NCBI GenBank assembly: GCA_049699855.1
Contig: JBNAWM010000007.1
Location: 14,716-28,952, forward strand
Length of the DNA: 14,237 bases
DNA from: Candidatus Cryosericum sp.
GTDB lineage: Bacteria; Caldisericota; Caldisericia; Cryosericales; Cryosericaceae
Direction: 5' to 3'
The position numbers and the translations under genes are program-made. The notes beneath the pieces were generated by a model, which saw nothing but the letters and a program-made list of their open reading frames with translations, was not told the DNA's origin and did no database searches. Each line of letters starts with the position of its first letter. Position 1 is the first letter of the stretch. Of the stretch, positions 595 through 13,311 are shown one piece after another.

Positions 595-623
595 GTGACA
601 ACCTGCTCTCTTTGCCATATACT
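595..623 (+). promoter_or_regulatory. Putative sigma70-type promoter for the HAD-hutH-nitroreductase unit
   Basis: GTGACA (595-600) - 17 nt - TATACT (618-623), 25 nt upstream of ATG 649; back-to-back with the divergent promoter. Confidence 0.6.
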
Positions 624-648
624 AAATGTCGAAGTCAAAAGGAGACAC

Positions 649-1371
649 ATGATACGCGCAATAAGTCTGGATTTGTGGAAGACACTGATTCAAGATAATG
701 ATGAAGATGAGGCTCTGCGCGATCGCATCAGGGCTCAGGCCATTGGCGAGGTGCTTGCCCGACAACACGTGAGCGTTTCGGTCGATGGATTGTATGAGAG
801 CCTTCGCCGCATCGACGTTCTGCGCAGAGACGTCCGCGAAATGCGTGACTGGACGCTCACCACTTCTAACCAGGTCTCCTTTGTGCTGACGCAGGCCAGC
901 GTGTATCCCTCACCAGAGATTGTAGCAGCCATCCTGCCAGGGTACGAGTCCGCAATTCTTGAACTCATGCCCTCGCTGATCGAACAAGACGCACCAAGGC
1001 TGCTTGCCCGCCTGGCACAGGACTATCCTCTGTCGCTGACTTCCAACACCGGCAAGACTCCCGGTCGTGTGCTGTTGAAGGTACTCGATACATTTGACAT
1101 CCGCCGGCAGTTCAGCCACTTCATCTTCTCGGACGAAGTCCTGTACATGAAGCCGGACGAAGGCATCTGGCAGCTGCTTGTCGACACCAATGAACTGAAG
1201 CCTGAAGAGATTGTCCATGTGGGAGACTCCTACCGCATGGATTATGAGGGCGCGCGGGCTGCTGGCCTGCAAGCGATCCTCTTCGGGCGTCGGGAGCGAA
1301 TGCCTTCCGGCACGATCGTCATTGACTCACTCACTCAGCTTTCAACAACGATACAGGAGATGAATAGATGA
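649..1371 (+). CDS. HAD-superfamily hydrolase (subfamily IA-like), 240 aa
   Basis: Start moved from 595 to ATG 649 (SD AAAGGAG at 638-644). Motif I SLDLWKTL, motif II TSNT, motif III EVLYMKPD, motif IV HVGDSYRMDYEGARAAG. Confidence 0.9.
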   Translation: MIRAISLDLWKTLIQDNDEDEALRDRIRAQAIGEVLARQHVSVSVDGLYESLRRIDVLRRDVREMRDWTLTTSNQVSFVLTQASVYPSPEIVAAILPGYESAILELMPSLIEQDAPRLLARLAQDYPLSLTSNTGKTPGRVLLKVLDTFDIRRQFSHFIFSDEVLYMKPDEGIWQLLVDTNELKPEEIVHVGDSYRMDYEGARAAGLQAILFGRRERMPSGTIVIDSLTQLSTTIQEMNR

Positions 1372-2855
1372 ATATACGTCTTACCGGTTCCAGCCTGACC
1401 TCCAGCGAAGTCGTCCGCGTTGCTCGGCAGAATGCTCTCGTCGAACTCAGCGAAGAATCTGTGGAACAGATCAAGGTCGCCTCCTCTTTTGTTCAGAAGA
1501 TCGTACACGACCAGGTGCCAGTCTATGGCATCAACACCGGTTTTGGCTCACTCTGCAATGCACACATCGGAACCCAGGACCTGGCAAAGCTGCAGGAGAA
1601 CCTGATCATGTCACACGCGGTGGGCGTCGGCAGGTGCTTCGGCGAGGATGAGGCTCGGGCCACAATGCTGGTGCGAGCCAACACGCTAGCCAGTGGACAC
1701 TCTGGCGTTCGACTGGAGGTTGAGCAGCTGTTGCTCACCTTGCTCAACCACCATGTCTACCCGATGATTCCCTCGCAGGGATCCCTTGGCGCCTCAGGAG
1801 ACCTTGCTCCTCTTGCTGCGCTGGCTTTGGTGTTGATTGGCAAAGGCACGGCCAAGGTACATGGAGAGATGCTCCATGGCGTGGACATCCTTGATGCCAT
1901 CGGAGCAAAGCCGGTTGTCCTGGAGGCAAAAGAGGGCCTTGCGCTGATCAATGGAACGGCGGTCATGACTGGTGTAGCCGCTCTTGTCTTTGCCGATGCG
2001 CGCACGCTCCTCCATGCAGCCAACCTTGCAGCGGCGATGACCATGGAAGCCCTGCATGCCCATCTCGAGCCTTTTGACGAACGCATCCATGACCTGCGCC
2101 GTCACGCAGGACAGGGGGCGGTTGCCAAGGAGATCCTGAGCTATGTCGCAGGCAGCAGACTTGTCGGCACCTGTGATGACGTTCAGGATGCCTATAGCAT
2201 CCGTTGCATGCCACAAGTCCATGGCGCGGTGTCGGACACCATCGATTTTGTGGAGAACGTCCTGCTCAACGAACTCAATGCTGTGACCGACAACCCCCTC
2301 CTGTTTCCTGCAGACGGAGACGTTCTCTCAGGAGGGAACTTTCATGGTGAACCCATAGGCCTGGCCATGGACTACCTTGGGATTGCTCTGTCAGAGTTGG
2401 CCAGTATCAGTGAACGGCGCACGAACCGCTTGCTGAACCCCGCCCTCAGTCGCGGCCTGCCTGCATTCCTGACGCACGACGCTGGCGTCAACTCGGGGCT
2501 GATGATCGCCCAGTACACGCAGGCTGCGTTGGTCTCTGAGAACAAGGTGCTGGCACACCCCGCCTCGGTGGACAGCATTCCCGTCTCTGCCGACCAGGAG
2601 GATCATGTCAGCATGGGCACCATTGCTGCACGCAAGGCCCGCTCCATTGCTGACAACGTGTTGACGGTGGTCGCTATCGAACTCCTGGCTGCTTTCCAGG
2701 CGGTCAGGATCCGTGGCGGCGAGAACCAGCTGGGCGCAGCGACCGGTAGGGCATTTGCGAAGCTCAAGGATTTGGTTCCGCCCATGCAGGGCGACCGCAT
2801 GTTCATTGAAGATATCGATGCTGTGAGAGACCTGATTCGCAACAATGAAGTCTGA
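1368..2855 (+). CDS. hutH: Histidine ammonia-lyase
   Basis: YGINTGFG, MIO-forming ASG in GSLGASGDLAPLA, KEGLALING, QDAYSIRCMPQVHGA, DNP, GGNFHG, QEDHVSMG. LIMSHAVG carries the Ser-His pair typical of HAL rather than PAL/TAL. ATGA overlap with the upstream gene; SD AGGAG at 1355-1359. Confidence 0.93.
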   Translation: MNIRLTGSSLTSSEVVRVARQNALVELSEESVEQIKVASSFVQKIVHDQVPVYGINTGFGSLCNAHIGTQDLAKLQENLIMSHAVGVGRCFGEDEARATMLVRANTLASGHSGVRLEVEQLLLTLLNHHVYPMIPSQGSLGASGDLAPLAALALVLIGKGTAKVHGEMLHGVDILDAIGAKPVVLEAKEGLALINGTAVMTGVAALVFADARTLLHAANLAAAMTMEALHAHLEPFDERIHDLRRHAGQGAVAKEILSYVAGSRLVGTCDDVQDAYSIRCMPQVHGAVSDTIDFVENVLLNELNAVTDNPLLFPADGDVLSGGNFHGEPIGLAMDYLGIALSELASISERRTNRLLNPALSRGLPAFLTHDAGVNSGLMIAQYTQAALVSENKVLAHPASVDSIPVSADQEDHVSMGTIAARKARSIADNVLTVVAIELLAAFQAVRIRGGENQLGAATGRAFAKLKDLVPPMQGDRMFIEDIDAVRDLIRNNEV

Positions 2856-3552
2856 TATTCGCAGGACATATGCACAGCTGAACTATATCAGCCTAGTGCG
2901 CAGCCGCCATTCGACGCGCAGTTATGAACCACACCCCTTGACGCAGGAGGACAGACAGAGCATCGCTGTGGCTATCGCATCGGCTGTGCCGCTCTCCACG
3001 ACCAATCTGATGGACTGGAAGCTGGCCGACAAGTCAATCATGGGATGCAGTGCGGTCCTGTACGCCGAATCCGGAACTTCTCCAGACGAGCTCGCTGAGT
3101 ATGGATATCAGGGCCAGCAGATTGTTCTCGCACTGCTTGCAGACGGCTGGGGAACGTGCTGGTACTATCAATTTCGCATGCCTGGCAGTCCATGCTCGAT
3201 AACGGTCGGCAGGCCCGCTGCGCCTGGTCTGCGCTCGGCAGTTGTGGAAGCACTGGCCCGGGGAGGCACGCGCAGGCCCTTGGAGCAACTGGTCACGGGT
3301 GGCATTCCCGAAGGCACATCACCATTGGTTCGTACCGTCCTGGCATCAGCGCGGCTAGCTCCGTCCGCCATGAACCGCCAGCCGTGGAGCTTCGAGGTAC
3401 GATCAGACCAAGAGGTTGTCATCAAAGGCAAGGTCAGCCTGTATCCTGACCTGGGCATCTGTCTCGCGAATGCGATGGTCACAGCCCGGCAGCTGGCCGG
3501 CCAGGCAGTAGTTACGCGTCTTGATGGGGACGAGTACAGAATCAGCTGGTAA
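2845..3552 (+). CDS. Nitroreductase-family flavoprotein (TM1586-like tandem-domain type); start uncertain
   Basis: RSRHSTRSY FMN-binding motif, GYQGQQIVLALLADGWGTCW, ARLAPSAMNRQPWSF and DLGICLAN. ATG 2845 overlaps the hutH end by 11 nt; in-frame CTG 2878 is an alternative start. Confidence 0.85.
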   Translation: MKSDIRRTYAQLNYISLVRSRHSTRSYEPHPLTQEDRQSIAVAIASAVPLSTTNLMDWKLADKSIMGCSAVLYAESGTSPDELAEYGYQGQQIVLALLADGWGTCWYYQFRMPGSPCSITVGRPAAPGLRSAVVEALARGGTRRPLEQLVTGGIPEGTSPLVRTVLASARLAPSAMNRQPWSFEVRSDQEVVIKGKVSLYPDLGICLANAMVTARQLAGQAVVTRLDGDEYRISW

Positions 3553-3611: not shown

Positions 3612-3797
3612 TCAGCCGCCCACCTGTAGCAATGGCGCAAGCCCGGATCTTCTCTGGGGCTTGCGCCATTCCATTTTGGACGCCATCCACAGTTTCTGCT
3701 GTTTCTGAAGGTGTCGGATCTTTGCTGGCCTGCTTCGTGTCCGACGATTCTTCTGGGCGGGGCGCTCCATTTTTCGCATCATGCTGTCTTCGTTCAT
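3612..3797 (-). CDS. Small highly basic protein of unknown function, 61 aa (candidate ArfA/BrfA-like rescue factor)
   Basis: SD AAGGAGGTGA (3810-3801) directly upstream of ATG 3797; own promoter at 3870-3843; fills an otherwise empty gap; 10 Arg + 7 Lys versus 4 acidic residues. Confidence refers to it being a real gene, not to the function. Confidence 0.75.
   Translation of the reverse strand: MNEDSMMRKMERPAQKNRRTRSRPAKIRHLQKQQKLWMASKMEWRKPQRRSGLAPLLQVGG
3631..3670. repeat. Perfect 14-bp inverted repeat (stem-loop)
   Basis: AATGGCGCAAGCCC (3631-3644) / 12-nt loop / GGGCTTGCGCCATT (3657-3670). Covers codons 43-56 of the small ORF and lies ~80 nt after the nitroreductase stop; followed by CCATTTT on the + strand. 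Confidence 0.9.
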
Positions 3798-3842
3798 GAG
3801 TCACCTCCTTGGATATCGATGCTTGCCCAGGCAAGCGCCCTA

Positions 3843-3870
3843 ACTGTACAGGAGGCGATGAGCATGTCAA
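3843..3870 (-). promoter_or_regulatory. Putative sigma70-type promoter for the small basic ORF
   Basis: Minus strand TTGACA (3870-3865) - 16 nt - TACAGT (3848-3843). Confidence 0.6.
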
Positions 3871-3920: not shown

Positions 3921-4793
3921 TCACTGCCGGTGAGGATCTGGTCTGCCAAATTCGCCGTGCGCGAACTTCTCGAGGGCCACTGCAGCCCCCTGCTGATTGT
4001 TGGACGGCACTACGTACCGGGCCATTGAGAGAGTCGTCGCATCTGCATTGGCGACAGCAACCGAGACGCCCGCGACCGCAAACATGCTGCGGTCTGCCTC
4101 GCAATCGCCGACTGCCATGACATTCTCCGGCACCACCCCGATATGATCCATCAACCACTGCAGACCCATGCCCTTGCTGACGCCGGCGGCCATGATGTTG
4201 ATGAAGTTCACATCTGCCTTGACAATGCTGGCCTCAGACCCGAACCACATCGAGAGCTGCTCCCGGACAACATCACAGTCCTCAGGACTGCACTTGACCG
4301 AGATCTTGCGCAGGTCTCGGGCGACAGACTCGGCGTACTGTGGTATCTCTGGCAGTGCATCGTCCTGACGACTCGATGCCCCGTTGTCCCCTGAAGCAGC
4401 CCTTGCTGCATTTCGAAACAGTCTTGGAGGATTCCGACCGTAGAGAATCACCGTAATCGGCACTTTCACTGTCTGAAGTCTGCGCAGGACGGCAGCCACA
4501 ATCTCAGGCGAAATAAGGCGCTCTGAAAGGACATTGCCGTCTGCCGGATCCACAATGACGGCTCCTTGCTCGGCGATGACGGGCAACGACTTCCAGCCCA
4601 GCTGTTCCACATAGGGAGCGATGTGTTCGAAGTCACGCCCCGACGCGATCGTGCATGCCAGCCCCGGAACCATGGCTTTGGAGAGCCGCGACTCCAGGTC
4701 TGCCGAAATCGATGACGTGTCATCCAGCAATGTCCGATCCAGGTCAAACACCCCAAGCATCTTCAGGTCCGTCACCGCCTGTTCGCCGTTCAA
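3921..4793 (-). CDS. Cof-type HAD-IIB phosphatase; start uncertain (TTG 4793, GTG 4775 or ATG 4760)
   Basis: Motif I VFDLDRTLL, motif II IASGR, cap entry VIAEQGA, motif III GVSKG, motif IV MAVGDCEADRSMF, then VAVANA...ARYVVPSNNQQG. Confidence 0.9.
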   Translation of the reverse strand: MNGEQAVTDLKMLGVFDLDRTLLDDTSSISADLESRLSKAMVPGLACTIASGRDFEHIAPYVEQLGWKSLPVIAEQGAVIVDPADGNVLSERLISPEIVAAVLRRLQTVKVPITVILYGRNPPRLFRNAARAASGDNGASSRQDDALPEIPQYAESVARDLRKISVKCSPEDCDVVREQLSMWFGSEASIVKADVNFINIMAAGVSKGMGLQWLMDHIGVVPENVMAVGDCEADRSMFAVAGVSVAVANADATTLSMARYVVPSNNQQGAAVALEKFAHGEFGRPDPHRQ

Positions 4794-10760: not shown

Positions 10761-12038
10761 CTAATGCTTCACCATCTGTAGCAGGGTCTGAACCGTGAGG
10801 GTGCCGGCCAGGATAATCATGACGATCGCCTGTGCCCATACCGCGATATTCTTACCACGGCTGTTGACGTATTCTCCCATCAACGACTTGTCGTTGACCA
10901 GCTTCAGCATGAGAACCAGGATCAGCGGCAGAAGGACGCCGTTTGCCGCCTGCGAAAACAGCATGACCCCAACGAGCTTGTTCTCGGGTACAAACATGAT
11001 GATCCCTGCACCCAGGACAATGAGAGCCGTGTAGAGGCCATAGAAGAGAGGAGCCTCTCGAAATGACTTCCCCACACCCGACTCCCAGCCAAATGCTTCA
11101 GCGACGGAATATGCCGTCGAGAGGGGCAGGACACCCGCAGCCATGATGGATGCATTCAACAAGCCAATGGCAAACAGCACGGACGCGTACTTCCCCGCCA
11201 GTGGAGCCAGCGCACCGGCTGCTTCTGCGGCAGTATTAACTCGGACGCCTGCAACAAACAGCGTGCTTGCGCATGCAACAACTATGAAAAAGGAAACAAA
11301 GTTGGTGAGGAAACTGCCGATGTAGGTGTCCAGGGCCTCATACTTGTAGTTGCGTACATCGATCGCCTTTTCGGCAACAGAAGACTGCTGGTAAAACTGC
11401 ATCCATGGCGCGATGGTTGTCCCAATGGTCGCGATGAACAGCGAAATGAACTCGGGATTCATCTGGAAACTCGGCACAACCGCCGCCTTGCCAACAACGC
11501 TCCAGTTTGGATGAGCCATGAACGCACTGGCGACATAGGTCAGATAGAGGACGCAGAACAGGAGCAGGACCTTTTCCACTCCCTTGTATGATCCTCGCAC
11601 GACGAGAAACCAGACGAGGAAGGCAACCGCAGGGATTGCGACGAATCGGTTCAAGCCCAGAATCGGGCTGGCTCCTGCCACTCCTGCAAATTCGCCCATG
11701 GTATTGGTCAGGTTCGTGAACACCAGCAGAATCATGACAATCATGGTGAGCCGGATACCAAATCGTTCGCGAATGAGATCCGCCAGGCCTTTGCCCGTGA
11801 CGACGCCCATGCGCGCACTCATCTCCTGAATCATGGCCAGGGTGAAGGTGATGAGCAGGAGTATCCAAAGCATCGAGTAGCCAAACCTCGCCCCAATGAC
11901 GCTGTAGGTTGTAATGCCACCTGCATCATTGTCGACGTTGCCCGTTATGATTCCAGGACCGAGAACTGCGAGCATGACTGGCAGGGTGAGTGCAAAGTGA
12001 CGCAATCTGCCTCTAAGACGTGCTCTCATGCGTGGCAT
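10761..12038 (-). CDS. Nramp/SLC11-related divalent cation transporter, NRMT (Mg2+-type) clade
   Basis: GPGIITGNVDNDAGGITTYS (DAGG in place of DPGN), QEMSARMGVVTGKGLADLIRERFG, TM6 IGTTIAPWMQFYQQS, LMGEYVN. Alternative ATG at 12029. Confidence 0.9.
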   Translation of the reverse strand: MPRMRARLRGRLRHFALTLPVMLAVLGPGIITGNVDNDAGGITTYSVIGARFGYSMLWILLLITFTLAMIQEMSARMGVVTGKGLADLIRERFGIRLTMIVMILLVFTNLTNTMGEFAGVAGASPILGLNRFVAIPAVAFLVWFLVVRGSYKGVEKVLLLFCVLYLTYVASAFMAHPNWSVVGKAAVVPSFQMNPEFISLFIATIGTTIAPWMQFYQQSSVAEKAIDVRNYKYEALDTYIGSFLTNFVSFFIVVACASTLFVAGVRVNTAAEAAGALAPLAGKYASVLFAIGLLNASIMAAGVLPLSTAYSVAEAFGWESGVGKSFREAPLFYGLYTALIVLGAGIIMFVPENKLVGVMLFSQAANGVLLPLILVLMLKLVNDKSLMGEYVNSRGKNIAVWAQAIVMIILAGTLTVQTLLQMVKH

Positions 12039-12046
12039 CCGCCCGG

Positions 12047-13270
12047 TTACTCCATGGCCTGGTCGAGCACATCGTCGACGGTCACGATGCCCTGCAGAAT
12101 CCCATCGTGATCGACCACGGGCAGAGCGAGATAGCTGTACTTGTCGATGATCTCGGCCACCTTGTCCTTGGAGTCGTCTACGAAGACCGATACAGTACGT
12201 TTCTGCATGAGATCCGAGACGATCGTCCCCGGCTGTGCAACAATCAACGCCCGCAGTGAGAGGATGCCTGCCAGGTGTCCGTCATCGTCCGTAACGTAGA
12301 GATAGTAGATCGTCTCCGTATCGGGAGCCTCCCTGCGGAGGAGTTCGATGACCTGCTCCGCAGTCATTTCCTGGCGGATTTCGAGATAGTCATTTGTCAT
12401 GAGGCCGCCCGCGGTGTCCTCGTCATATGCAAGCAGTTCGCGGACGTCTGCACGCTCCTCCGGTTCCATCTCCTGCAGCATTGCCTCCTGAGTCTCGGCA
12501 CGCGTATCCTGCAGGATATCGGCAGCGTCATCCGGATCCATCTCCTCAAGAATGTCTGCTGCCCGCGCGACGCCCAGGCGTTCAAGGATGGTAACCTTCA
12601 CCCTGTCATCTTCCAGCTCGGCGAGCGTATTGGCTGCCTGCTCGTCATTCAAAGCCTTGAAGAGAGCATCGCGCTCGTTGAAGTCAAGATCGTCGACGAC
12701 ATCAGCCAGATCAGAAGGATGGAGCTTGGAGAGCTCCTGCCACGTTGCCCTGACCTGGACGCTGTGCACGTCGCGTCCAAGGGGCTCGACGAAGCTCCAC
12801 GGAATCGAATTCTCGGCAATCTTGTGATGCCGGGCTGCCTCCATTAGGAAAATGACCCAGGACAAACCGGCTCTCCGCATGAAGCTCCGAAATCCGGCGT
12901 CCGCGGCTATGACACGCAACTGCCCATGGCTCTCTGCCAGTTCGATGTCGTTCACGCGCACGACTTTGGCGCCATGGATATCAACAATCTGCTTGTCAAG
13001 GACGTGGTTGAGCAGCAGCATGGATGTGCTTTCCAGCTTCGCAGTCGGCTGAAGTTCACTGCCTGCAAGTTTGAGCGTACACTCCGTGACTCCCAGTCCA
13101 CGCACATTGTGCCAGACGACGCGCGTCAATCCCCTCTGAGTTCTTACCAGAACGGCCATGACAGCCGGAAACTTTTCGCCAAGAGCAACTTCAAGATCTG
13201 CTATGGATCCAACGACGACCTGTTTCCGATCCAGAACGCGCATGCCAAGAATGTTGCTAAGGTAAAACAC
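12047..13270 (-). CDS. Soluble MgtE-intracellular-domain protein (PRC-barrel-like repeats, MgtE_N, CBS pair; no membrane domain), 407 aa
   Basis: Start moved to GTG 13270 (SD GGAGG 13280-13276). LHPSDLADVV, EEMDPDDAADIL, LLAYDEDTAGGLMT, IYYLYVTD, LPVVD...GIVTVDDVLD, then stop; no MgtE TM segments. Confidence 0.9.
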   Translation of the reverse strand: MFYLSNILGMRVLDRKQVVVGSIADLEVALGEKFPAVMAVLVRTQRGLTRVVWHNVRGLGVTECTLKLAGSELQPTAKLESTSMLLLNHVLDKQIVDIHGAKVVRVNDIELAESHGQLRVIAADAGFRSFMRRAGLSWVIFLMEAARHHKIAENSIPWSFVEPLGRDVHSVQVRATWQELSKLHPSDLADVVDDLDFNERDALFKALNDEQAANTLAELEDDRVKVTILERLGVARAADILEEMDPDDAADILQDTRAETQEAMLQEMEPEERADVRELLAYDEDTAGGLMTNDYLEIRQEMTAEQVIELLRREAPDTETIYYLYVTDDDGHLAGILSLRALIVAQPGTIVSDLMQKRTVSVFVDDSKDKVAEIIDKYSYLALPVVDHDGILQGIVTVDDVLDQAME

Positions 13271-13311
13271 AAGCGCCTCCCGGGGCAAGGTATCGTATTT
13301 CCAGCTCCAGT

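Follow-up and report, generated by a model that had tools for sequence, protein, structure and literature searches.

A small basic protein gene with an intragenic hairpin in Candidatus Cryosericum, a candidate for a new ribosome-rescue factor

A terminator-like hairpin lies inside the coding region of brfA, ahead of the stop codon, and the tail encoded past it is dispensable (PMC6881298, excerpt). A stem-loop also occupies the 3' coding region of arfA, where both termination and RNase III cleavage have been described (PMC8012679, excerpt). ArfA and BrfA are species-restricted, and rescue systems that escape homology searches may await identification in many bacteria (PMC6881298, excerpt). The window analyzed here, a stretch of 14,237 nucleotides from a Candidatus Cryosericum contig, holds an open reading frame of 61 amino acids that runs across a hairpin before reaching its stop codon. 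Is this frame a gene, does the hairpin belong to it, and might the product be a back-up ribosome-rescue factor made from non-stop mRNA, as a first-pass annotation of the DNA had supposed? The small basic family that emerges is uncatalogued and, by analogy with the known factors, is a good candidate for a new rescue factor.

The gene, its signals and its product

The reading frame, its putative signals and its neighbors are as follows.

3797..3612, minus strand: open reading frame of 61 amino acids with an ATG start, from the translation
3870..3843, minus strand: sigma-70-type promoter-like TTGACA-16-TACAGT; the layout is the same in the genus loci, with a varying spacer
3810..3801, minus strand: Shine-Dalgarno (SD) site AAGGAGGTGA
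3657..3797, minus strand: residues 1-47, a conserved basic core of pI 11.8 that is presumed to be the working part, given its dN/dS and the fact that distant homologues end here
2845..3552, plus strand: nitroreductase gene (PF14512), a neighbor outside the system, convergent with the 61-aa frame
3921..4793, minus strand: HAD-family hydrolase gene (PF08282), an upstream, co-directional neighbor

The frame, the TTGACA-16-TACAGT element, the strong SD site and a product with 17 K/R and 4 D/E (counted from the translation) had all been noted before and were confirmed in the sequence. TTGACA-16-TACAGT is the sole such site between positions 3000 and 4600, where shuffled sequences contain a mean of 0.4. 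A -35 box, a spacer of 16-17 nucleotides, a -10 box and a GGAGG recur in each of the 21 genus loci, the window among them, whose upstream DNA was long enough; L021 was too short for this count and L023 was unscored. A second TTGACA lies just 5' of the SD site in L002-L004, L006-L008, L010-L016 and L023, and is missing from the window.

The HAD hydrolase gene is found upstream in relatives often, but not always. On the plus strand, a run of genes at 595-3552 (HAD hydrolase, an aromatic amino acid lyase resembling histidine ammonia-lyase, and the nitroreductase) converges on the hairpin; urocanase adjoins nitroreductase in relatives, an ordinary histidine-utilization context. Elsewhere in the window (10761-13288, minus strand), an NRAMP-like transporter gene adjoins an MgtE-like CBS-domain gene, both named by eye from their translations.

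A single-copy homologue is present in all 22 other Cryosericum genomes, some of which are only 61-75% complete. Two profiles gave no convincing homologue in 70 genomes of other Caldisericota families; three matches there, with E values of 0.013-0.039, were not accepted, and two of them carry internal stops. The family has 7 representatives among 1.84 billion proteins and forms 75 clusters at 90% identity.

Judged by its pattern of substitution, the 61-aa frame is a real protein-coding gene under purifying selection in its core. Across 21 loci (L001-L021), codons 2-42 have a dN/dS of 0.20 and codons 24-41 one of 0.09, and variable columns at the first, second and third codon positions number 20, 21 and 37 of 41 in the core, and 4, 6 and 16 of 18 in the motif. 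A conserved non-coding element (a small RNA, a leader or a terminator region) in which a reading frame arose by chance might otherwise account for the strong RNA structure and for the failure to match any protein family. However, such an element is hard to reconcile with the third-position variation and the dN/dS values of 0.09-0.20, with an SD site and start codon that are retained among homologues, or with a protein that is still 41-57% identical in homologues of 36-40% GC. Rfam returned only two chance-level matches and none near the gathering score, and an attenuator leader was discarded, as the gene that follows mostly points the other way and converges. The non-coding reading is thus already largely refuted, and we regard it as highly improbable.

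The core is strongly basic throughout the family, with 13-18 K/R and a pI of 10.2-12.0 in all 13 alignment rows. Its invariant residues include Arg18, Ala25, His29, Leu30, Lys32, Gln33, Trp37 and Lys41; His29 is preceded by Arg in the genus, and by Lys in three of the seven stop-bearing homologues described below. An AlphaFold2 model of the core (pLDDT 75, pTM 0.35, 13 sequences) consists of a helix at residues 3-11, a loop and a helix at residues 25-45, the most conserved part being this long helix, which reaches about 15 residues beyond His29. The free-state model lacks the short beta-strand with which BrfA and ArfA extend the domain 2/4 sheet of RF2; a strand of this kind may appear only in the bound state. 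A predicted complex of the core with residues 60-340 of RF2 (score 0.01, mark 0.32) was uninformative either way.

No usable match, and no rescue family, was found in Pfam or NCBIfam with the window protein and 19 alignment members; five scattered Pfam matches (E 0.03-0.26) were taken as chance. PHROGs gave nothing convincing (two matches at E ~0.045), the family profile matched none of the PDB chains at E<=10, and Foldseek found no match in the PDB. The best VIA-align hit (Z 3.5 at an rmsd of ~10) involved generic helices, and the ESM Atlas offered no usable match, only unnamed clusters at 0.77-0.80. Blank family and structure searches do not imply a new fold. Identity with bS21 was rejected, since the protein matched no family and a separate bS21 is encoded in the genome.

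The hairpin, the floating stop codon and the end of the mRNA

Three further features concern the 3' part of the gene.

3631-3644 and 3657-3670 (arms), minus strand: hairpin, a perfect 14-bp inverted repeat with a 12-nt loop, codons 43-56
3624..3633, minus strand: the 10 nucleotides after the core stem, the first 3 of them shared with the end of the 14-bp arm; a weak U-tract
3612..3629, minus strand: tail and stop codon, presumed dispensable from the varying tail length and the drop in identity

The perfect 14-bp stem over codons 43-56, ahead of the stop, is present as annotated before. Only 16 perfect stems of at least 14 bp occur in the 1.63-Mb genome, two of them inside reading frames of at least 150 amino acids. 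REP-like repeated palindromes are found among these stems (C86:2853-2895, C155:1704-1746 and C107:3303-3345; C74:2879-2912 and 4320-4353; all 0-based). When folded, the transcript has a z of -2.0, with 8 of 200 shuffles folding as well. In the hairpin alignment, 82.5% of cells are paired and 5 of the 14 stem pairs show changes on both sides (11 such cells); none of 500 shuffles reached as many and slid controls were lower, although shuffle and Poisson figures overstate the case because kin are not independent. Moreover, dS is halved within the hairpin.

At least 46 loci were examined (44 distinct, 2 cut by contig ends and 3 distant homologues), leaving 39 that could be scored. Among the matches listed, all 39 scorable Cryosericum-type loci have the hairpin at about codons 44-55 and the stop codon 15-215 nucleotides past the stem; the stem is weak in L022 (-8 kcal/mol). 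Past the hairpin, nucleotide identity drops from 0.85 to ~0.3, codons 57-59 have a dN/dS of 1.03, and the tails span 3-72 codons, with a mean of 22.8 against a neutral expectation of 27.7. The encoded tail therefore looks neutral. Stops within codons 42-57 number none in 38 loci among the matches listed, against 3.7 expected (a rough neutral count, P ~0.02, with loci that are related). The 70 Cryosericum-type database proteins are all 59-94 amino acids long, though lengths from 29 amino acids upward were searched; the longer forms merely have longer tails, and no fused form was found among three longer matches.

What lies downstream varies among the loci, the neighbor being a convergent nitroreductase, ABC transporter or urocanase gene, or a co-directional AIRS-like gene. 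Since the hairpin stays while this neighbor changes, it belongs to the 61-aa gene; it is probably also a terminator of the convergent operon. As predicted from the window, the core is conserved among the relatives, the tail varies, and the hairpin is kept ahead of the stop and shows compensatory changes; the comparison with the arfA and brfA layout stood in so far as a real coding gene has a frame crossing its own hairpin before the stop.

How the mRNA would end at this hairpin, a presumed intrinsic terminator and/or RNase III site, is less straightforward. The first-pass annotation had seen no U-tract after the stem and favored nucleolytic processing on that ground. The U-tract of the window is indeed weak, with 3 T in the 10 nucleotides after the core stem on the coding strand versus 6 on the opposite strand, and is one of the three weakest among 22 genus loci. 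In the relatives, by contrast, the flank is mostly U-rich, and the preference for a nuclease is unsupported: the 8 nucleotides after the core stem contain at least 4 T in 19 of the 22 loci and at least 5 T in 13, the T fraction of the genome being 0.21. Intrinsic termination is thus no less likely than cleavage by RNase III. The tract is interrupted in most loci, and the genus means for the 10 nucleotides are 5.6 T on the coding strand and 5.0 T on the opposite strand. With the opposite strand nearly as U-rich, the hairpin is probably bidirectional; because the coding tract is also interrupted or weak, termination on the coding strand could be leaky, with the convergent gene as the main beneficiary of the hairpin. 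In the window itself it looks more like a terminator of the convergent operon. Nonetheless, a weak tail need not mean leakage, since weak U-tails also follow many of the genome's other long intergenic stems, which are presumed terminators.

Both RNase III and Rho are encoded in the genome, and several relatives have a U-rich flank whose back-pairing could lengthen the stem to ~20 bp. On balance, we take intrinsic termination to be the probable way in which the mRNA ends at the hairpin; cleavage by RNase III seems doubtful as the sole route, and both together, or some other means, unlikely. In metatranscriptomes, one of three runs (all from one study) yielded a single 206-nt contig over 3682-3887, with 3 differences and with the neighbors uncovered. 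It starts upstream of the -35 box and stops 12 nucleotides short of the hairpin; nothing is drawn from it, because an assembled contig reveals neither transcript ends nor strand and may derive from DNA.

Known rescue factors and stop-bearing homologues

The genome carries tmRNA, SmpB and ClpX. Of the 23 genus genomes, many of them incomplete, 14 gave a full-length tmRNA above the cut-off. Two GGQ proteins are encoded, RF1 (cut by a contig end) and RF2. Neither ArfA (profile PF03889) nor RqcH scored over the cut-off in any of 93 phylum genomes, a weak RqcH match in the genome being an Fpg-like gene by reading of its translation. ArfB was found in none of the 23 genus genomes and in 11 of the 93 of the phylum, namely in 10 of the 13 genomes of family f5 and in one other with two adjacent matches (G049:C6:28298-29117); the ArfB-bearing genomes gave no convincing match to the small basic family. 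A published survey likewise lists its one Caldisericota/Cryosericota genome without ArfA, ArfB and RqcH (Table 1 of PMC11633108, excerpt). In the open-access main texts covered, this survey has "Caldiseric" solely in that table, and Cryosericum was unmentioned in the papers listed. With trans-translation present and ArfA, ArfB and RqcH undetected, the genus leaves room for a back-up. This argument is weakened by the 59 of 70 phylum genomes outside the genus in which neither these three nor the small basic family was found, since the gap must there be tolerated or filled otherwise.

In the RF2 gene, prfB, an in-frame UGA stands at codon 25-26, always followed by CTG (G000:C17, L110:563-1690; L134-L141; L144-L147, L150); the short N-terminal part shares its frame with the RF2 body, and the in-frame CTT before the UGA is missing. 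All 9 Cryosericum loci and all 5 loci of one other family show this layout; the remaining 7 of the 21 loci read differ. The sequence suggests UGA read-through, or restart at the CTG, in place of a +1 frameshift. The partial text of a prfB survey of 12,751 genomes does not mention "readthrough", "read-through" or "Caldiseric".

Of the known factors, BrfA (YqkK of Bacillus subtilis, RF2-dependent) is closest in layout. It too is a short basic protein of narrow lineage, with an in-frame hairpin and a dispensable tail, in a host with tmRNA-SmpB, and has a His preceded by a basic residue (PMC6881298, excerpt). Its architecture differs, however: in BrfA a pair of short N-terminal helices is followed by a beta-strand and a tail (PMC6881298, excerpt), whereas a helix, a loop and a long helix are predicted for the Cryosericum core. 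The Lys-His motif that ArfA and BrfA have in common contacts 16S rRNA and, in BrfA, lies near the end of the channel-bound part (PMC6881298, excerpt). His29 of the Cryosericum protein, with the Arg or Lys before it, recalls this motif but is placed elsewhere. The interrupted U-tract, and stop-bearing homologues in phage and mobile-looking DNA, are further differences. A resemblance to BrfA, first seen by eye, remained unconfirmed: the family profile, run against all PDB chains, gave nothing at E<=10. A structure of BrfA exists (6SZS).

ArfA of Escherichia coli (PF03889) likewise has a stem-loop in the 3' coding region, a poorly conserved tail and an active form of ~55 amino acids (PMC8012679, excerpt), and the hosts agree in having RNase III, with a stem that lengthens to ~20 bp in several Cryosericum relatives. 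The tail of ArfA is, however, fixed and hydrophobic, and that of the Cryosericum protein is random in length and sequence. None of 19 family members matched PF03889, and the KGKGS mRNA-channel motif of ArfA is absent from both family alignments. A profile comparison with ArfA, proposed earlier as a check, gave an hhalign probability of 0.14%, and 59 of 200 ArfA shuffles scored as high against the family profile. To the eye, the C-terminal tail of ArfB/YaeJ (NF006718), which senses the empty mRNA channel, is also similar (two helices, the second of them basic, joined by a basic linker that contains Pro), but the Cryosericum protein has no GGQ domain. The ArfB-tail profile (22 sequences, one of 23 loci having given no GGQ frame and been left out) gave an hhalign probability of ~1%; the window protein did no better than shuffles (119 of 200 as high), and is not among the 5 of 15 members that fall in the top 5% of their own shuffles. 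Neither by-eye likeness was significant in the shuffle and profile tests and both were set aside; on sequence grounds, the Cryosericum protein is not a member of ArfA or ArfB. By description, ArfT of Francisella is also very short, basic and lineage-restricted (10.1101/465609, excerpt). Its normal stop and lack of an internal terminator (10.1101/465609, excerpt) resemble the stop-bearing mobile homologues and not the chromosomal Cryosericum gene, which has an internal hairpin.

These homologues comprise seven distinct proteins of 41-57% identity (P0071-P0074, P0078, P0079 and the L078 product) that end at core residue 47. DNA was read for three of the seven (L078, L079 and L101, one of them phage), and a normal stop follows the core in each.

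L078:18-176 and L079:3001-3159: stand-alone genes of 36-40% GC with their own SD site; a stop, then a classic hairpin and U-run
L101:843-986 (= L154; G093, an IMG/VR contig): phage-borne homologue of 51% identity, stop-bearing, with no terminator after it

The neighbors of L078 and L079 are mobile-looking, with PHROGs matches and transposase-family genes; L079 has a VWA-type gene on one side and a gene for a TnpB-like transposase on the other. The L101 frame starts on the stop of a holin-like gene (by eye), behind an endolysin gene. When its contig was compared with the Cryosericum genome, the small basic gene was the sole translated match, and the phage host is not tied to this genome. Scans of viral sequences yielded one true locus only, L101 (= L154), and a match at L102 was due to chance. 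No tRNA or tmRNA genes were found beside the mobile copies. Since the stop precedes the hairpin in L078 and L079, a 47-aa core appears to suffice, and since stop-bearing copies exist, the protein does not need non-stop gating. From the loci compared, a frame that runs across the hairpin looks limited to the chromosomal form.

The rescue reading and its rivals

The explanation that we favor, by analogy and with modest confidence, is that the gene encodes a candidate back-up factor for ribosome rescue, which would recruit a release factor and whose production would be controlled by trans-translation. As in brfA and arfA, the mRNA would end around codon 57, at the hairpin, with intrinsic termination as the likeliest cause. 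Ribosomes would then stall at the stop-less end, and the product would be tagged by tmRNA-SmpB and degraded by ClpXP, the protease by which tmRNA-tagged products are degraded. Should trans-translation become limiting, a protein of ~55-57 amino acids would be released untagged and accumulate. Its basic loop and helix could then enter the empty mRNA channel of the stalled 70S ribosome and recruit RF2 and/or RF1, with hydrolysis of the peptidyl-tRNA. By analogy with the known cases, the earlier part of this scheme (a stop-less mRNA, SsrA tagging with degradation, and accumulation when trans-translation is limiting) is quite likely; given that part, recruitment of a release factor seems reasonably probable.

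The same layout evidence would serve equally well if non-stop, tmRNA-gated expression were real and the protein were some other effector rather than a release-factor adaptor, for example a factor for ribosome hibernation or splitting, a trigger of growth arrest or abortive infection, or a binder of RNA or RNA polymerase. No homology or motif ties the protein to release factors, and the phage homologue lies right behind an endolysin and a holin-like gene. Yet a full-text literature search for this layout singled out papers on BrfA alone, arfA being the other case met; the logic of a protein made only when rescue fails directly suits a rescue function; and no other back-up was found in the genus. 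We consider such an effector unlikely. A plainer possibility is that an ordinary small basic ribosome- or nucleic-acid-binding protein lost its own stop once, in a Cryosericum ancestor. The hairpin would then be a leaky bidirectional terminator, enough mRNA would read through to yield the whole protein, its random tail doing no harm, and control by tmRNA would be incidental. A single ancestral event would explain the common layout, the distant homologues do have a normal stop, and a weak coding U-tract (3 of 10 in the window, and weak in 3 of 22 loci) beside an opposite strand nearly as U-rich fits too, although weak U-tails are common among the presumed terminators of this genome and need not mean leakage. 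However, the stop could be restored in one step in several ways and was restored in none of 38 loci (3.7 expected) and none of 70 database proteins, and a 47-aa protein would have to tolerate 3-72 unrelated tail residues. This second rival strikes us as unlikely, slightly more so than the first.

Returning to the rescue factor, a more specific version may tentatively be put forward, though we hold it to be rather doubtful: the protein would be a further, independently evolved factor that recruits release factors and moves between phage and host in two regulatory states. Stop-bearing phage and mobile copies would act independently of trans-translation and keep ribosomes free during infection, and the Cryosericum chromosomal copy would be under tmRNA control across its own terminator. 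If so, the family would be a snapshot of non-stop feedback control arising, in a lineage whose RF2 is seemingly gated by an in-frame UGA instead of the usual frameshift. The gene is in any case a concrete candidate for the rescue system of a genus in which ArfA, ArfB and RqcH are undetected, and its stop-bearing homologues provide natural controls for the chromosomal non-stop form. If the protein is active in rescue, it would represent a new solution to ribosome rescue together with a phage-borne version; if it is not, it would be a rare non-rescue gene under non-stop control.
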